Shown here piece by piece: positions 43,125 through 49,591 of a DNA stretch of 64,000 bases (its first letter is position 1; every line of letters starts with the position of its first letter). Under the pieces are notes generated by a model, which was given only the letters and a program-made list of their open reading frames with translations, was not told the DNA's origin and searched no databases. Made by a program: the position numbers and the translations under genes. Location: the NCBI RefSeq assembly GCF_058153355.1, contig NZ_CM177019.1, one strand, 5' to 3'.

Positions 43125-43265
43125 GGAGGTAGGCCGACGATTTCAGCGGGACGCTGAAACGGGAAAGCCCCTCCCGAGGAAGGGGCCTTAAATAAGGAAA
43201 GGGTCATGATGAAGTGGATCATCATCGTGGTGCTCTTAGTCGTTAGCTACCCAGCTTACTAAGAC
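43125..43265 (-). ncRNA. sib: Sib antisense sRNA (antitoxin) overlapping ibs copy 1; ends approximate
   Basis: By established knowledge Sib RNAs (~140 nt) are encoded antisense to and fully overlap ibs; boundaries not determinable here. Confidence 0.35.
43206..43262 (+). CDS. ibs: Ibs-family small hydrophobic toxin peptide (MMKWIIIVVLLVVSYPAY)
   Basis: 18-aa ORF in repeat unit 1; resembles IbsA/IbsB of E. coli. Confidence 0.7.
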   Translation: MMKWIIIVVLLVVSYPAY

Positions 43266-43452
43266 TACCAGGGCGGGGGAAACCCCGCTCAACCCTCACT
43301 CCTGAAAATATGCCTTCACGGTCAGAATGTCAATCCGCAGGCTTTGCAGTCTGCGATCCTGCCAGCAAATATTCTTTGCGAGTCGTTACGCAATAATCAC
43401 AGATGAAACTATTTTATCTAAGCGTTAGCGATAGACTGCATTCAGGGCAAAA

Positions 43453-43593
43453 GGAGGTAGGCCGACGATTTCAGCGGGACGCTGAAACGGGAAAGCCCCT
43501 CCCGAGGAAGGGGCCTTAAATAAGGAAAGGGTCATGATGAAGATACTCATCATCGTGGTGCTCTTAGTCATTAGCTTACCGGCTTACTAAGAC
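43453..43593 (-). ncRNA. sib: Sib antisense sRNA overlapping ibs copy 2; ends approximate
   Basis: As for copy 1. Confidence 0.35.
43534..43590 (+). CDS. ibs: Ibs-family small hydrophobic toxin peptide (MMKILIIVVLLVISLPAY)
   Basis: 18-aa ORF in repeat unit 2. Confidence 0.7.
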   Translation: MMKILIIVVLLVISLPAY

Positions 43594-43780
43594 TACCAGG
43601 GCGGGGGAAACCCCGCTCTACCCTCACTCCTGAAAGTATGCCTTCACAATCAGATTGTCAATCCGCAGGCTTTGTAGTCTGCGATCCTGCCAGCAAATAT
43701 TCTTTGCGAGACGTTACGCAATAATCACATGTGAAACTATTTTATCTGCAAGTTAGCGATAGACTGCTTGCATGGCGAAA

Positions 43781-43921
43781 GGAGGTAGGCCGCCGATTTC
43801 AGCGGGACGCTGAAACGGGAAAGCCCCTCCCGAGGAAGGGGCCTTAAATAAGGAAAGGGTCATGATGAAGCTACTCATCATCGTGGTGCTCTTAGTTATT
43901 AGCTGGCCAGCTTACTAAGAC
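43781..43921 (-). ncRNA. sib: Sib antisense sRNA overlapping ibs copy 3; ends approximate
   Basis: As for copy 1. Confidence 0.35.
43862..43918 (+). CDS. ibs: Ibs-family small hydrophobic toxin peptide (MMKLLIIVVLLVISWPAY)
   Basis: 18-aa ORF in repeat unit 3. Confidence 0.7.
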   Translation: MMKLLIIVVLLVISWPAY

Positions 43922-44135
43922 TACCAGGGCGGGGGAAACCCCGCTCTACCCTCACTCCTGAAGTTATGTTACTCCACCCTTATTGTCAATCTGTAAGTCC
44001 ACGTTCTTGCGGGGCGAATAGCAAAACCCTCTGCGCTTATGGGCCGAATTCTGAAAGTTGCTTTGCCTGCTCTTATTTCATTATTGCAGTCGGTATGATA
44101 CCGGACCTCAATAATTCTCTAAGAAAGGATTTCTT

Positions 44136-44795
44136 ATGAGCGAACAAATCACGTTTGCCACCAGCGATTTTGCCAGTAACCCGGAACCACGTTGCCCCTG
44201 CATTTTGCTGTTGGATGTTTCTGGTTCGATGAGTGGTAGACCTATTAATGAACTTAACGCCGGATTGGTTACCTTTCGCGATGAACTGCTTGCCGATTCG
44301 CTGGCCTTAAAAAGAGTGGAACTCGGTATTGTGACGTTCGGCCCGGTGCATGTGGAACAACCATTTACCAGCGCCGCTAATTTTTTCCCGCCCATCCTGT
44401 TTGCCCAGGGCGATACACCAATGGGGGCCGCCATTACCAAAGCCCTGAATATGGTTGAGGAGCGCAAACGTGAGTATCGCGCCAATGGTATTTCCTATTA
44501 TCGTCCGTGGATTTTCCTGATTACCGATGGCGCACCAACCGATGAGTGGCAGGCTGCTGCCAACAAGGTGTTTCAGGGGGAAGAAGATAAGAAGTTTGCC
44601 TTCTTTTCCATCGGTGTTCAGGGGGCGGATATGAAGACGCTGGCCCAAATCAGCGTTCGTCAGCCTTTGCCACTGCAGGGATTACAATTCCGTGAACTGT
44701 TTAGCTGGTTATCCAGTTCGCTGCGTTCGGTTTCCCGCTCCACGCCGGGAACGGAAGTTGTACTGGAAGCGCCAAAAGGCTGGACGTCAGTGTGA
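44136..44795 (+). CDS. yegL: von Willebrand factor A-domain protein YegL
   Basis: 219 aa, MIDAS-like DVSGSMSG motif. Confidence 0.9.
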
Positions 44796-45553
44796 GCTGG
44801 CGTCTGGTTTATGCATCAGCCGTTGGAACGTCGCACATCAGCGCTGACTTGTCTTGCCAGGATGCCTGCCAGATGCAGGTTGCCTGGCTAGAAGACCAGC
44901 AGCCATTATTGTCGGTATTTGTCGCTGATGGCGCAGGCAGCGTCTCGCAGGGAGGCGAAGGTGCGAAGCTTGCCGTCAATGAAGCGATGGCTTATATATC
45001 GCAAAAAGTGCAGGGTGGGGAATTAGGGCTTAATGATGTTCTCGCCACGGATATTGTACTGACTATTCGTCAGCGACTTTTTGCCGAGGCAGAGGCCAAA
45101 GAATTAGCGGTTCGCGATTTTGCCTGCACATTTCTGGGACTGATTTCATCGCCTAACGGCACATTGATTATGCAGATTGGCGATGGTGGCGTGGTGGTAG
45201 ATTTGGGGCACGGTTTGCAATTGCCGCTCACGCCGATGGTGGGTGAATATGCCAACATGACGCATTTCATTACCGATGAAGATGCCGTTTCCAGACTGGA
45301 AACTTTCACCAGCACTGAGCGTGCGCATAGAGTTGCAGCATTTACGGATGGTATTCAGAGACTGGCGTTAAATATGCTGGATAATTCTCCGCATGTGCCT
45401 TTCTTTACCCCGTTTTTCAATGGACTGGCGTCAGCAACGCAGGAACAACTCGATTTATTACCTGAATTGTTAAAGCAGTTTTTGTCCAGCCCAGCGGTAA
45501 ACGAGCGTACCGATGATGATAAAACGTTAGCACTGGCTATGTGGACAGAATGA
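44792..45553 (+). CDS. yegK: PP2C-family protein phosphatase YegK (PphC)
   Basis: 253 aa; overlaps the yegL stop; K-12 synteny. Confidence 0.88.
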
Positions 45554-45617
45554 ACATCGCATGGCGGTTGAAGACAACGGTTCAACCGCCAGTTTAAGCA
45601 ATCAATATAATGGCTGG

Positions 45618-46079
45618 CTAGCGAACTAACTTTGCTCTTAGCTCGTCGGCTTCTTCTTTTGGATAGGTGACCAATAAAGGATCAATGGTATAACCACCGT
45701 AAATTTTATCCCCGCGCGTATACATCCAGTCTGAAATATCTTCTTTCTTGATTTTCCACTCCTGGCCATATTCTACGTTTGTAACAATACCAGGGTCATT
45801 GCTTATTATACCAATAAACATGCCGTTAGAATAAGTCACATCCGTGAGCCAGAAATGCTCGGTTTCTCCGCGATCGGTTATCGGGGCTTTGACTGCGAAA
45901 GTATCAGCATCTTTTTTATTCATAACTTCGATGAATTGATCGGTTTCTTTCCGCGCATGTTTAATCGCGTCAGACATCGCCTTTTTATCATAACCTCCCG
46001 TCACTAACGTATCCGAAACTTCACTAAAGCCCGCGGTAGTAAAAAATAGCAGACACAACATAAGTAATATCTTTTTCAT
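45618..46079 (-). CDS. yegJ: Secreted protein of unknown function YegJ
   Basis: 153 aa with signal peptide MKKILLMLCLLFFTTAGFS. Confidence 0.85.
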   Translation of the reverse strand: MKKILLMLCLLFFTTAGFSEVSDTLVTGGYDKKAMSDAIKHARKETDQFIEVMNKKDADTFAVKAPITDRGETEHFWLTDVTYSNGMFIGIISNDPGIVTNVEYGQEWKIKKEDISDWMYTRGDKIYGGYTIDPLLVTYPKEEADELRAKLVR

Positions 46080-46279
46080 TTTTTCTCCAGAATCCCTGTG
46101 TAGTAAAAGTTAGCAAAAAACCTGTGGAAGTGAATCATTATCAGGTTGGAATTGAATTGTATCCTGATGAAATTGCATTATCATTTTTATTCTTGAGTGG
46201 GACTCTTCCAATATGGAAATAATTATAATGGGCAGTGTTATTATTCATTGAAATATAATATGACTGCCCTTGAAACATT

Positions 46280-48226
46280 ATGAAGAAAAATATAAAAGTA
46301 TTTACATCGACAGGTGAATTGACCACTCTCGGGCGTGAACTGGGCAAAGGTGGCGAAGGCGCGGTTTATGATATCGAGGAGTTTGTCGATAGCGTCGCCA
46401 AGATTTATCACACGCCGCCACCCGCCTTAAAACAGGACAAACTTGCCTTTATGGCTGCGACAGTTGACGCGCAGTTGCTGAATTATGTCACCTGGCCGCA
46501 AGCAACGCTTCATAGTGGACGAGGTGGGAAGGTTATCGGTTTTATGATGCCAAAAGTTTCTGGTAAAGAACCGATTCATATGATCTATAGCCCGGCACAT
46601 CGTCGCCAGAGTTACCCTCATTGTGCGTGGGATTTTCTCCTCTATGTTGCGCGCAATATTGCTTCATCTTTTGCTACGGTTCATGAGCACGGGCACGTCG
46701 TGGGTGACGTAAACCAGAACAGCTTTATGGTAGGTCGCGACAGCAAAGTGGTGTTGATCGATAGTGACTCCTTTCAGATTAACGCCAATGGCACACTGCA
46801 TTTATGCGAAGTCGGCGTGTCGCATTTTACGCCGCCAGAGCTGCAAACCTTGTCGTCATTTGTTGGCTTTGAACGCACAGAAAATCACGATAATTTTGGC
46901 CTTGCATTGCTGATTTTTCACGTCTTGTTTGGTGGGCGGCATCCTTATTCTGGTGTGCCGCTTATCTCTGATGCGGGTAATGCGCTGGAGACGGATATTG
47001 CCCATTTTCGTTATGCCTACGCGTCAGACAATCAGAGACGTGGCTTAAAACCGCCGCCACGATCGATTCCGCTATCGATGTTACCGGGTGATGTTGCAGC
47101 CATGTTTCAGCAGGCATTCACGGAAAGTGGCGTGGCAACCTCGCGTCCGACGGCAAAAGCGTGGGTAGCGGCACTGGATTCTCTACGCCAACAGTTAAAG
47201 AAATGTACCGTTTCAGCAATGCATGTTTACCCTGGTCATTTAACCGACTGCCCGTGGTGTACACTGGATAATCAAGGCGTTATCTATTTTATTGATCTTG
47301 GCGAAGAGGTGATTACCACCGGCGGTGATTTTGTGCTGGCGAAAGTCTGGGCGATGGTGATGGCGTCAGTAGCACCGCCAGCACTACAGTTACCATTACC
47401 CGCTCATTTCCAACCAGCTGGCAGGCCGCTTCCTTTAGGCCTGTTACGGCGTGAATACATTATTCTGATTGAGATCGCACTGTCAGCGTTATCGCTGTTG
47501 CTTTGCGGTCTTCAGGCAGAACCGCGTTATATTATTTTGGTGCCTGTGCTGGCGGCTATCTGGATTATTGGCAGTCTGACAAGCAAAGCTTACAAAGCAG
47601 AAGTCCAGCACCGTCGTGAGGTATTTAATCGTGCGAAAATGGACTATGACCATTTAGTCAGCCAGATCCAACAGTTGGGCGGGTTGGAAGGTTTTATCGC
47701 CAAACGGACGATGCTCGAAAAAATGAAGGACGAAATTCTCGGTTTACCGGAAGAAGAAAAGCGCGCGGTGGCAGCACTTCATGACACCGCAAGGGAACGG
47801 CAGAAGCAGAAGTTTCTGGAGGGATTTTTTATTGATGTTGCCTCTATTCCCGGCGTTGGCCCTGCGCGTAAAGCGGCGTTACGGTCTTTTGGTATTGAAA
47901 CAGCAGCAGATGTTACCCGTCGTGGTGTTAAGCAAGTGAAAGGGTTTGGTGACCATCTGACCCAGGCGGTTATCGACTGGAAAGCGAGTTGCGAACGCCG
48001 TTTTGTGTTCAGGCCGAATGAAGCGGTAACGCCAGCAGACAGACAAGCGGTAATGGCGAAAATGACCGCCAAACGACATCGGCTGGAATCGGCGCTGACT
48101 GTCGGCGCGACAGAGTTGCAGCGATTCCGCCTTCATGCTCCTGCACGGACCATGCCGTTGATGGAACCATTACGTCAGGCAGCGGAGAAACTGGCTCAGG
48201 CGCAGGCTGATTTAAGCCGCTGCTGA
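46280..48226 (+). CDS. yegI: Protein kinase-like protein YegI
   Basis: 648 aa; N-terminal kinase-like fold, TM segments, C-terminal helical region. Confidence 0.88.
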   Translation: MKKNIKVFTSTGELTTLGRELGKGGEGAVYDIEEFVDSVAKIYHTPPPALKQDKLAFMAATVDAQLLNYVTWPQATLHSGRGGKVIGFMMPKVSGKEPIHMIYSPAHRRQSYPHCAWDFLLYVARNIASSFATVHEHGHVVGDVNQNSFMVGRDSKVVLIDSDSFQINANGTLHLCEVGVSHFTPPELQTLSSFVGFERTENHDNFGLALLIFHVLFGGRHPYSGVPLISDAGNALETDIAHFRYAYASDNQRRGLKPPPRSIPLSMLPGDVAAMFQQAFTESGVATSRPTAKAWVAALDSLRQQLKKCTVSAMHVYPGHLTDCPWCTLDNQGVIYFIDLGEEVITTGGDFVLAKVWAMVMASVAPPALQLPLPAHFQPAGRPLPLGLLRREYIILIEIALSALSLLLCGLQAEPRYIILVPVLAAIWIIGSLTSKAYKAEVQHRREVFNRAKMDYDHLVSQIQQLGGLEGFIAKRTMLEKMKDEILGLPEEEKRAVAALHDTARERQKQKFLEGFFIDVASIPGVGPARKAALRSFGIETAADVTRRGVKQVKGFGDHLTQAVIDWKASCERRFVFRPNEAVTPADRQAVMAKMTAKRHRLESALTVGATELQRFRLHAPARTMPLMEPLRQAAEKLAQAQADLSRC

Positions 48227-48238
48227 GCCATTTTTCAA

Positions 48239-49591
48239 TTAACGAAACACCACTTCTGCCCAACGTGCCAGCCCGGCGGTAACCGACCCAAAGTCATCGC
48301 CGCCTGCAATTGGAATGCCCGGCAACTGTTCTGCCAGCGCTTTTTTAATCAGCGGTGATCGGGCGCTACCACCAGTCAGATAGATGACATCCGGTTTTTC
48401 CTGGGCGTTATCCAGCGCCAGTTGCACCTGTTCCAGAATTCGCGCCAGCGGCTGACTGAGGGCGTTTTCCAGTCCTTGTTGGCTAATCAGTGTTGCCAGT
48501 TCATCGCTGATAAACGGCAGCGATGCGCGGGTTTCCGCTGCGCTGGAAAGGGCGATTTTGCTCTCTTCCGCGCTGCGTACCAGCCGATAACTTAAACGCT
48601 GACGCCAGACTTTCTGTAACAGGGCCACTTTCTCCGGTTCGCGGGCGTCGCGTACCAGGTCGTTAAGCAGACGACCGTTAGCACTACTGTAGAAATCACT
48701 CTGCGCTGGTACATCGTTGATGGCAACCGCATTCCACCACGGCAGGATCGGCAGGGCGATGCCTTTTTCGGTTTCGCCACCCATGCCCAGTAACGGCATC
48801 AGGTTTTTAAACGCCAGCGCGATATCCAGATCGTTACCACCAATACGGCAACCACTATGACCCAGCAGGCTGGCTTCACGATCGAGACGCGAACGCCACT
48901 GTGGCCCCATTAGCAGTAAAGAACAGTCAGTCGTACCACCACCAATATCCACCACCAGCACCCGTTTTTCTTCCTGCAAGGTGGCTTCGTAATCCAGCCC
49001 AGCCGCCACCGGCTCGTACTGGAATACCACATCCTTAAACCCGGCACGCTTCGCTGCGCGCTCCAGAATCCCTTGTGCCTGGGCGTTTGCTTCATCGCCG
49101 CCCAGCCCCTGGAAGTTGATCGGGCGACCAATCACCGCCTGGGTAATCGCTTCTGGCAATTGCGCCTGCGCCTGTTGGCGAATGTGCAGCATCATTGCGC
49201 AGACCAGATCCTCAAACAGCGCTACCTGCTGCGGTTTTAAGCCGCTGGCACCGAGGAACGATTTTGGTGATTTCACAAACCACACTTCTTCCGGATCATC
49301 AATGTATTGTGCCAGTGAAGAAAGACCGAACTGCACGCTTTTCGCCGTGACATCGATATCTTCTTCGCGGTTATAACGAATTGCCCGACGTAATAGCGCC
49401 TGCGTTTCATTGTCGTCTGCCGGAACATCATGATGGCGGTACAGCCATTCGCTTACCGCTTCACGCGTTGGCGCGCAAAGCATTGAAGGCAGCAGCGTGC
49501 TGTCGTTTTCCATTTTCAGTAATTGCGGTTTACCGTCACGCATGACCGCCACTGAACAGTTTGCTGTACCGTAATCAAAACCAATAAACAC
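48239..49591 (-). CDS. yegD: Hsp70/actin-fold ATPase YegD, probable GTG start
   Basis: 450 aa from a GTG start (MFIGFDYGTANCSVAV), preceded by gggga SD; the track ORF extends upstream without an in-frame ATG at the right place. Confidence 0.85.
   Translation of the reverse strand: MFIGFDYGTANCSVAVMRDGKPQLLKMENDSTLLPSMLCAPTREAVSEWLYRHHDVPADDNETQALLRRAIRYNREEDIDVTAKSVQFGLSSLAQYIDDPEEVWFVKSPKSFLGASGLKPQQVALFEDLVCAMMLHIRQQAQAQLPEAITQAVIGRPINFQGLGGDEANAQAQGILERAAKRAGFKDVVFQYEPVAAGLDYEATLQEEKRVLVVDIGGGTTDCSLLLMGPQWRSRLDREASLLGHSGCRIGGNDLDIALAFKNLMPLLGMGGETEKGIALPILPWWNAVAINDVPAQSDFYSSANGRLLNDLVRDAREPEKVALLQKVWRQRLSYRLVRSAEESKIALSSAAETRASLPFISDELATLISQQGLENALSQPLARILEQVQLALDNAQEKPDVIYLTGGSARSPLIKKALAEQLPGIPIAGGDDFGSVTAGLARWAEVVFR

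Follow-up and report, generated by a model that had tools for sequence, protein, structure and literature searches.

Which role do YegI and PphC, the only pair of a Hanks-type kinase and a PP2C phosphatase in Escherichia coli, play in this organism? The question has been open since 2018, and it is raised by a block of genes at positions 44136-49591 of the window, by which we mean the whole stretch of 64,000 nucleotides analysed here (contig NZ_CM177019.1 of RefSeq assembly GCF_058153355.1). The block runs exactly from the start of yegL to the start of yegD and carries, in between, pphC (also called yegK), yegJ and yegI. Our analysis indicates that yegL, pphC and yegI (yegLKI from here on) form a triad of a type that is found as a self-contained, horizontally mobile cassette in bacteria and archaea. 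As to its meaning, the reading that we favour, tentatively and at a little under an even chance, is that yegLKI is a domesticated, mostly silent copy of a mobile three-gene phospho-switch of TerY-P type that derives from a conflict system.

The initial annotation had described the block as a cluster of von Willebrand A (vWA), PP2C phosphatase and kinase-like genes beside an Hsp70-like yegD, and the open reading frames (ORFs), the Pfam and NCBIfam matches and the AlphaFold model of YegI all bear this out. Its label of a core-genome block holds because megablast located the block, annotated yegL, pphC, yegJ, yegI and yegD, in 5423 of the 5426 complete E. coli genomes. The arrangement was also said to be reminiscent of signalling or conflict modules, and we agree, the architecture being of TerY-P type and many relatives lying in defence or mobile-element contexts. 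The same can be said of the poorly defined physiological role, since no function is assigned in the literature searched, where a 2026 paper still calls the pathway unknown and nothing was found that gives the block a clear role outside signalling or defence. Nor is the block novel as sequence, as was stated from the start: the genes and their biochemistry were already known and the idea of the triad dates from 2012.

A mobile three-gene cassette

Relatives of YegI are very numerous. With E ≤ 0.001 as the limit an exhaustive search yielded 9692 cluster representatives, and with E ≤ 1e-30 it yielded 3229 (clusters defined at 50% identity); many are full length, and a scan of one genome per species gave at least 492. 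The bacterial relatives include beta-, gamma- and alpha-proteobacteria, Desulfobacterota, Acidobacteria, Pirellulales, Frankia, Georgenia, Clostridiales and Synergistaceae, and the archaeal ones Methanoregula and Methanomicrobiales. Full-length relatives are scattered over phyla at 33-62% identity. The best matches outside Escherichia were about 60% identical and came from Klebsiella spallanzanii, K. aerogenes and Burkholderiales.

The kinase gene hardly ever travels without its partners. We scored vWA and PP2C genes upstream of the kinase by a same-strand hidden Markov model (HMM) scan in the 74 loci with enough upstream DNA, which span Proteobacteria, Acidobacteria, Actinobacteria, Clostridiales, Synergistaceae and Methanoregula. 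In 73 of them, bacterial and archaeal, the kinase has both genes ahead of it on its own strand. Clustering of the neighbouring ORFs revealed no conserved fourth or effector gene, only lineage-specific synteny and antisense shadow ORFs. Besides, 64 plasmid records contain a YegI relative, 27 of them conjugative and nine from E. coli, although some of these nine are chromosome-sized and evidently mislabelled chromosomes. Among the genuine plasmids are Pseudomonas megaplasmids (e.g. the plasmid of P. fluorescens SBW25) and plasmids of Cupriavidus, Ralstonia, Rhizobium and Agrobacterium. Phage genomes contained essentially no YegI relatives, with a single weak partial match.

The neighbours of the triad change from one locus to another. 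In Piscinibacter there are NYN, SLFN-like helicase, MazG-like, ScoMcrA/NOV_C, HIT and SNase genes on one side and BrxR and JetB on the other. Within 10 kb of the K. spallanzanii triad there are BrnA, GmrSD, SymE and a type I restriction system, and the triad of Chromobacterium lies beside AbiH, a KAP NTPase and the Tn7-like genes tnsA, tnsB, tniB and tniQ. One metagenomic copy abuts a type I restriction-modification system and an Mrr-like nuclease, another is found among SNase, HipA-like and unknown genes, and K. aerogenes and one more metagenomic copy have ordinary metabolic neighbours. We also examined 134 of the nearest ORFs of 30 further diverse loci, where the matches included Gabija A and B, DpdF, PsyrT, PDC-S01, type II methylases, Mrr (2), WYL and integrases (2). 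In two families of Pseudomonas megaplasmids the triad comes directly after a umuD/umuC-like pair. Specifically, an S24 peptidase of umuD type and a Y-family polymerase are located upstream on the same strand (L094, 4608-6306; L095, 5110-6811), at about 0.8-1.3 kb from the triad. In two unrelated loci (L003, 7719-8474; L093, 7700-8501) an ORF of 69-70 amino acids and a staphylococcal-nuclease-like gene are found directly upstream, again on the same strand, and an ORF of 69 amino acids is likewise upstream of the triad in L092. These two genes may be an optional accessory pair.

Architecture of YegI and its partners

We built an alignment of 107 full-length sequences of the family (33-90% identity) and modelled YegI with AlphaFold. 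With 40 close homologues the predicted local distance difference test score (pLDDT) was 71.6 and the kinase core was poor, and with the 107 diverse sequences the mean pLDDT was 94.2. The predicted order from the N-terminus is kinase, zinc knuckle, membrane hairpin, coiled-coil stalk, double helix-hairpin-helix (HhH)2 and coiled coil (Table 1), with binding of metal and DNA as putative properties. Residues G24, K41, D143, N145, D161, D163, S164 and E187 are invariant among the relatives, and so are C309, H315, C324, C327 and W567 further on.

In the model the N-terminal part has what defines the Hanks-type fold, that is, two lobes, a Gly-rich loop (G22-G27) and the catalytic Lys (K41) and Asp residues, together with E187. 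Foldseek matched the first 300 residues to PknB, BRAF and Aurora, with template modelling (TM) scores of about 0.65-0.72 and E of about 1e-7, and the closest solved structure by sequence was found at E=0.017. The catalytic loop reads V-G-D143-V-N145-Q-N-S, so that V-G-D replaces HRD, and D161-S-D163-S164 replaces DFG. The Pfam search with YegI gave no kinase match, only a weak one to HHH_5, and the Pkinase model itself missed YegI and matched only two of 40 relatives, weakly. Judged by its motifs and by this model, YegI would not be a canonical kinase of the group. It is nevertheless an active Ser/Thr kinase that prefers Mn, as published work has established together with the two motif replacements. 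In these studies YegI autophosphorylated on three serines, with the Ser beside the second Asp being essential, and the kinetics were of second order, consistent with dimers. The essential phosphoserine is our S164, given an offset of two residues from strain REL606.

Directly after the kinase domain the model shows two strands (306-308 and 316-318) forming a beta-hairpin and a helix (325-331). With the four invariant Cys and His residues, this is a probable zinc knuckle or ribbon that would bind metal. The membrane hairpin that follows is poorly conserved in sequence though hydrophobic, and published PhoA-LacZ fusions established that YegI passes twice through the inner membrane, with both termini in the cytoplasm. 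The stalk is modelled as consecutive helices (up to 467, 469-487, 489-502 and 504-513). Two HhH motifs come next, modelled within residues 528-573. Of 36 family members, 32 matched Pfam HHH_5 at scores under the gathering cut-off (best E=2.3e-5), and a profile of residues 505-585 matched the (HhH)2 of archaeal L32e (E=0.005), REV1, the UvrC C-terminal domain, Pol IV, RAD51 and ComEA, with overall E of 0.005-0.7. Relatives carry the public name 'DNA-binding helix-hairpin-helix protein with protein kinase domain'. These similarities suggest a nucleic-acid-binding module at about residues 517-575, which would contact DNA. The long helix that ends the protein is probably a dimerisation coiled coil. 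Public data also contain truncated YegI clusters (P0029, P0040 and P0047) of 402-508 amino acids with hundreds of sequences each, which could be fragments at contig ends or recurrent inactivating mutations of the kind seen in long-term evolution lines.

The metal-binding residues of the two partners are intact. YegL matches Pfam VWA (E=5e-10), and its MIDAS metal site is complete (D27-x-S29-x-S31, T94 and D131) and conserved, like the N-terminal motif N-P-E-P-R-C-P-C, in at least 90% of 45 orthologues. PphC matches PP2C_2 (PF13672) at E=3.6e-51 over 204 of the 209 profile positions, and its acidic metal-binding residues (D24, D46-G47, G130-D131-G132, D186-G187 and D241-D243) are present in at least 90% of 59 orthologues. 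According to published work PphC retains six of the eight canonical PP2C residues and has the Mn-dependent activity of a PP2C-like phosphatase; it dephosphorylates YegI and is in turn phosphorylated by it.

Relation to TerY-P and to other kinase systems

In the description of later papers, TerY-P consists of a vWA protein of TerY type, a PP2C phosphatase and a kinase that is fused to a zinc ribbon in the systems linked to CoCoNuT or to an OB fold in the stand-alone ones (Gao et al. 2020), which are active against T7-like phages (Autographiviridae). From the partial sequence in the published supplement we located the cloned TerY-P in E. coli G3/10 (L007, 9200-12459). It codes for proteins of 277, 239 and 561 amino acids, adjoins a type I restriction system and is annotated as TerY-P in RefSeq, which names its genes 'TerY-P anti-phage system...' and does not so name yegLKI.

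At the level of architecture yegLKI is a member of the TerY-P-type triads. Both have three co-directional genes whose order is the same, coding for a vWA protein that has a DxSxS metal site, an adjacent PP2C and, in third place, a kinase with a C-terminal extension. Triads of both kinds are found beside restriction-modification genes (TerY-P often), and both kinases share the atypical core GD-x-x-x-N followed by LID-x-D. The differences are also clear. The kinase of G3/10 is a soluble protein with a C-terminal half that matches the STK_OB (OB-fold) model, while YegI has the zinc knuckle, membrane hairpin, coiled coil and (HhH)2 and lacks an OB fold. In an hhalign comparison the two kinases aligned over 171 columns of the kinase core with a probability of 71%, and nothing was aligned beyond the core. 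TerY-P is present in only five of the 5426 complete E. coli genomes, in which yegLKI is nearly universal, and anti-phage activity has been demonstrated for TerY-P only. The profile HMM test would place yegLKI in a family distinct from the anti-phage TerY-P for which models exist. Presumably COG4245 stands for 'YegL, vWA domain of TerY type' and COG4248 for 'protein kinase and HhH domains'.

In the TerY-P triads linked to the McrBC-like CoCoNuT systems of types II and III-A (Bell et al. 2024), the C-terminus of the kinase is extended by a zinc ribbon that presumably binds nucleic acids, and in the same way YegI has its invariant Cys/His motif right after the kinase domain. However, YegI continues into the membrane hairpin and the (HhH)2, and the Yeg-type triad stands alone, without a linked McrBC, helicase or nuclease core. 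The pairs PknB-PstP, PrkC-PrpC and Stk1-Stp1 resemble YegI-PphC in having a membrane-anchored Ser/Thr kinase that autophosphorylates in the activation loop and an adjacent gene for the cognate PP2C, and the fold of YegI matches that of PknB. Unlike these kinases, YegI has no extracellular sensor (PASTA) domain, both its ends being cytoplasmic, and departs from them in the HRD and DFG positions and in being invisible to Pfam Pkinase; its vWA partner is obligatory, and it contains an HhH domain. The distribution is also different, mobile and patchy in the YegI type and lineage-stable in the PknB type.

Some defence proteins with an active Ser/Thr kinase domain, PD-T4-6 and MkoA of Mokosh, gave weak matches to YegI (E of 1e-4 to 3e-3), but these cover about 100 residues of generic kinase core, far under family level, and neither system has a vWA or PP2C partner. 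Phage defence based on a kinase is also known in Staphylococcus, where the Ser/Thr kinase domain is the active part of Stk2. Stk2 is not known to have a vWA or PP2C partner either. A validated 'TerY-P variant' of P. aeruginosa (Costa et al. 2024) was considered as a possible member of the YegI type. Its published primers (BN3208/BN3209) were matched exactly nowhere in four metagenome and viral scans and matched none of the triad loci compared in a meaningful way, and no P. aeruginosa entry was among the matches listed in a protein search with the YegI homologue of P. alcaligenes.

The window allele and the yegJ insertion

The allele in the window is not typical of E. coli. Its best identity to a complete genome over the block was 98.2%, and most genomes were 90-95% identical (megablast). 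Three segments of the window that we tested gave best identities of 97.3-98.7%, and none of the complete E. coli genomes of the collection reached 99%; therefore the source strain comes from a lineage poorly represented among complete genomes. The low identity over the block led us to suspect hypervariability of this locus, an idea that we rejected. Compared with K-12, synonymous divergence (dS) was raised across the whole stretch from baeS to dgcE (~32664-54000, roughly 21 kb), with values of 0.12-0.60 and the peak in baeS, against 0.02-0.07 outside of it (asmA, dcd, udk, yegH and wza). The ratio of nonsynonymous to synonymous divergence (dN/dS) was low in all the yeg genes (yegL 0.05, pphC 0.14, yegI 0.09, yegJ 0.19 and yegD 0.04), that is, all the genes of the block are under purifying selection. 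The raised dS of this stretch suggests an old recombinant or divergent haplotype block.

In REL606 pphC and yegI overlap by ATGA. In the window this junction is split by a 736-bp insertion with yegJ, which alters both the final residues of PphC and the initial ones of YegI. The difference between K and B strains at this point was already published; we can extend it by a frequency. Of the 5426 complete E. coli genomes 1917 (35%) have the segment, a presence/absence polymorphism. The insertion is AT-rich, with a GC content of 40.9% for yegJ versus about 51% for the triad. The triad genes abut in REL606 and in the relatives, whereas in the window the insertion, yegJ on the opposite strand and a hairpin come in between. 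This hairpin, between the convergent pphC and yegJ, is likely a transcription stop that would uncouple yegI from yegL-pphC, although it was not among the matches of the consensus terminator scan. The scans with promoter and terminator consensus sequences gave match counts at the level of shuffled sequence. Any yegI promoter in this allele must sit in the spacer between yegJ and yegI. With the operon cut in two by the insertion, yegI would therefore no longer be co-transcribed with yegL-pphC, as far as the arrangement of the letters tells.

Genes and elements around the triad

The initial annotation listed yegL, yegK, yegI and yegD correctly but omitted a fifth gene, yegJ. Neither yegJ nor yegD belongs to the conserved triad; both are neighbours. 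We found no yegJ in any of the non-Escherichia triad loci examined, and it is missing from 65% of E. coli genomes. As for yegD, we considered it as a fourth component and rejected it, because homologues appeared only in the two Escherichia loci among 82 triad loci. YegJ matches Pfam DUF2314 (E=2.4e-25) and has an N-terminus resembling a signal peptide. According to the 2026 paper it binds the N-terminal half of RNase E in two-hybrid assays, and overexpression of yegJ induces yegD; the signal-peptide-like N-terminus sits oddly with the binding of a cytoplasmic RNase E. YegD belongs to the separate NCBIfam family NF008673 (E=1e-244), and its Pfam match is confined to the nucleotide-binding part of Hsp70, the best stretch covering profile positions 2-205 of 599. 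It would be an Hsp70/actin-like ATPase without a substrate-binding domain, and in this respect its sequence does not qualify it as an Hsp70 chaperone. The genes yegI and yegD are convergent, with 12 bp between their stop codons (48226-48239), and a 2025 study counted yegD-yegI among the pairs with overlapping transcripts ('excludons'). The next gene after yegD is alkA.

On the other side three Sib antitoxin RNAs stand in tandem, with ibs toxin ORFs opposite to them; there are two copies in K-12 and four in REL606. The last Sib RNA stops 147 bp short of yegL, so that the ibs/sib array, placed by the initial annotation a few kb away together with a prophage, is directly adjacent. The same distance does not hold for the prophage, which ends near 28.1 kb, ~16 kb from the block. 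It is a P2-like element (97% identity to phage fiAA91-ss over 86% of the query) located at the cyaR/ogrK-side attachment region, adjoining trhP, and is not relevant to yegLKI.

Table 1. Features of the yegL-yegD block and its surroundings (window positions).
Feature	Positions	Strand	Description and basis
P2-like (Peduovirus) prophage	~5540-28090		
Sib RNA	43191-43333	-	Rfam RF00113, 136-140 bits for the three copies
Sib RNA	43519-43661	-	Rfam RF00113
Sib RNA	43847-43989	-	Rfam RF00113
yegL	44136-44795	+	219 aa; ORF; first gene of the triad; cytoplasmic vWA protein
pphC (yegK)	44792-45553	+	253 aa; GTG start; PP2C-type Ser/Thr phosphatase; 4-nt overlap with yegL stop
Insertion, 736 bp	45563-46298		splits the pphC-yegI junction and carries yegJ; alignment with REL606
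Hairpin	45564-45591		10-bp stem GGCGGTTGAA/TTCAACCGCC; read from sequence
yegJ	45618-46079	-	153 aa; DUF2314; between pphC and yegI
Divergent spacer	46080-46279		200 bp, AT-rich; between yegJ and yegI
yegI	46280-48226	+	648 aa; atypical Ser/Thr kinase
yegI, residues 1-304	46280-47191	+	atypical Hanks-type Ser/Thr kinase domain; AlphaFold, Foldseek, alignment
yegI, residues 306-331	47195-47272	+	Cys/His motif region; C309, H315, C324, C327 invariant
yegI, residues about 391-440	47450-47599	+	membrane hairpin of two hydrophobic helices; model helices 391-411 and 417 onward
yegI, residues about 441-513	47600-47818	+	long cytoplasmic helices (coiled-coil-like stalk); pLDDT above 90
yegI, residues about 517-575	47828-48004	+	two helix-hairpin-helix motifs (IPGVGPARKAAL..., VKGFGDHLTQAV...)
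yegI, residues 585-648	48032-48226	+	single long C-terminal helix (585-647), pLDDT above 90; then stop codon
yegD	48239-49591	-	450 aa from annotated start; Hsp70/actin-like ATPase

A proposed phospho-switch of conflict-system origin and its alternatives

If yegLKI is a domesticated phospho-switch, it could work as follows. The YegI kinase would be held off by PphC until a signal is sensed near the membrane, either through binding of DNA or nucleoprotein by the cytoplasmic (HhH)2 and zinc knuckle, or through a protein ligand bound at the MIDAS site of YegL, acting as adaptor or co-sensor, or both. YegI would then dimerise along its coiled coils and autophosphorylate on the invariant Ser of the D-S-D-S loop. 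The active kinase would phosphorylate YegL, PphC and further proteins of the host or of the invader, and PphC would reset the switch. A membrane-tethered kinase of this sort would be sensor and effector at the same time, and for this reason no effector gene would be needed. Conflict with invading DNA (phage or plasmid) is the most likely role of the family. The cassette of E. coli has become a fixed part of the core genome and is nearly silent under laboratory conditions.

In favour of this proposal are the intact catalytic and metal-binding residues with the predicted (HhH)2, the published activities and topology, the near-constant linkage of the three genes, their mobility, the defence-type neighbours, the architecture shared with the validated TerY-P, the low dN/dS and wide retention in E. 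coli and, as a link to DNA, a genome-wide screen in which YegL and YegI each scored as strong inducers of DNA damage when overproduced. Several observations speak against it. In the literature searched there is no anti-phage or anti-plasmid phenotype reported for yegLKI and no paper that links the locus to TerY-P or phage defence; neither an inducing condition for the operon nor a substrate of the YegI/PphC pathway is known. The PADLOC models TerY, PP2C and STK_OB, which recognise the G3/10 proteins used as positive control (3.5e-173, 5.6e-108 and 9e-265), gave no match at E ≤ 0.01 to YegL, PphC, YegI or the triad of Piscinibacter. BLASTP against the G3/10 system found only 29% identity over 112 amino acids for the vWA proteins and 30% over 73 for the kinases, and no similarity between PphC and the TerY-P phosphatase. 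The association with defence and mobile elements is frequent, not universal, and consists of raw counts without a control comparison: many two-component, PAS and metabolic genes appear among the neighbours in the 30-locus sample, and two of the seven triad contexts annotated with Pfam have ordinary housekeeping neighbours. DNA binding by the HhH motifs and metal binding by the CHCC residues are themselves predictions. Finally, MG1655, which has the native locus, is the phage-sensitive host in which TerY-P was cloned, and near-universal presence in one species is unusual for a defence system. These last two facts weigh against a strong constitutive defence. A bolder version of the proposal would see the YegI-type triads as a very large unnamed class of innate immune sensors of bacteria and archaea, in which the tethered kinase would detect foreign DNA on entry (phage injection, conjugation) by its (HhH)2 and zinc knuckle and respond by phosphorylation, with YegL as adaptor and PphC for reset, the core-genome copy of E. 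coli having gone unnoticed by current defence-finding tools. We consider this improbable.

The DNA-related features could also be read in another way, namely that the triad signals DNA damage or genotoxic stress and is not directed at invaders at all. Tethered to the membrane, the HhH kinase would survey chromosomal DNA that is damaged or close to the membrane, and would adjust repair or mutagenesis by phosphorylation. In a genome-wide screen overproduced YegL and YegI were each strong inducers of endogenous DNA damage, but many membrane proteins, including MdtA and MdtB, also scored in it. The E. coli locus is two genes away from alkA, yet alkA and yegD are missing from all the non-Escherichia loci. 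The umuD/umuC-like pair precedes the triad on the two megaplasmid families and LexA and DinB_2 genes are found near one metagenomic copy; Peptidase_S24 and Y-family polymerase neighbours did not recur, however, in the 30-locus sample. The resemblance of the HhH region to UvrC, REV1, Pol IV and RAD51 fits this explanation, as do the links to DNA processing and stress proposed in the 2012 description of TerY-P (Anantharaman, Iyer, Aravind), according to a later paper. A patchy, plasmid-borne distribution would be atypical of a repair pathway, and all in all we regard damage signalling as rather unlikely.

Two further explanations concern E. coli itself. The triad might be an ordinary Ser/Thr signalling pair of the envelope or the stationary phase, working with YegD, YegJ and RNase E and with no connection to DNA or conflict. 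The position of YegI in the inner membrane agrees with this, and so do its weak expression, reported only in stationary phase, the slower growth upon yegI overexpression, also seen with other membrane proteins, the recurrence of yegI mutations in long-term evolution lines and the effects of YegJ on yegD and its binding to RNase E. Nevertheless, YegD and YegJ are linked to the triad nowhere else, with yegJ not even present in most E. coli, and the explanation accounts neither for the invariant (HhH)2 and zinc-knuckle modules and the vWA partner nor for the plasmid, transposon and defence-island contexts, so that we hold it to be rather improbable as well. The cassette might also be a silenced relic, retained by chance or hitch-hiking and without present function, with the yegJ insertion as a step of decay. 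The lack of a known expression condition, an operon split by AT-rich DNA in 35% of genomes, the many truncated YegI clusters in databases and the recurrent loss-type mutations in laboratory evolution would all be expected from a relic. But both enzymes have activity in vitro, no reading frame is broken in the window, K-12, REL606 or the best matches, and the relic is disfavoured by a dN/dS of 0.05-0.14 in the triad across about 5% nucleotide divergence and by the retention of the block in nearly every genome. It is, in our opinion, very unlikely.

Implications

What is new here is the explicit placement of yegLKI as a TerY-P-like variant with a distinct kinase architecture, missed by current defence models, the size and breadth of the YegI-type family with its strict linkage of three genes, the exclusion of yegD and yegJ from the module and the frequency of the yegJ insertion that splits the operon. 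Since the kinase family (3229 clusters) escapes both the Pfam kinase model and the PADLOC TerY-P models, any defence role it might have would be undercounted. Work in K-12 may have seen no phenotype because the operon of this strain, like that of the window, is split by yegJ. Placed among mobile TerY-P-like triads, the role of yegLKI becomes directly testable. Should no role in conflict emerge, the cassette would be a clear case of a mobile signalling module that has become fixed in a core genome.

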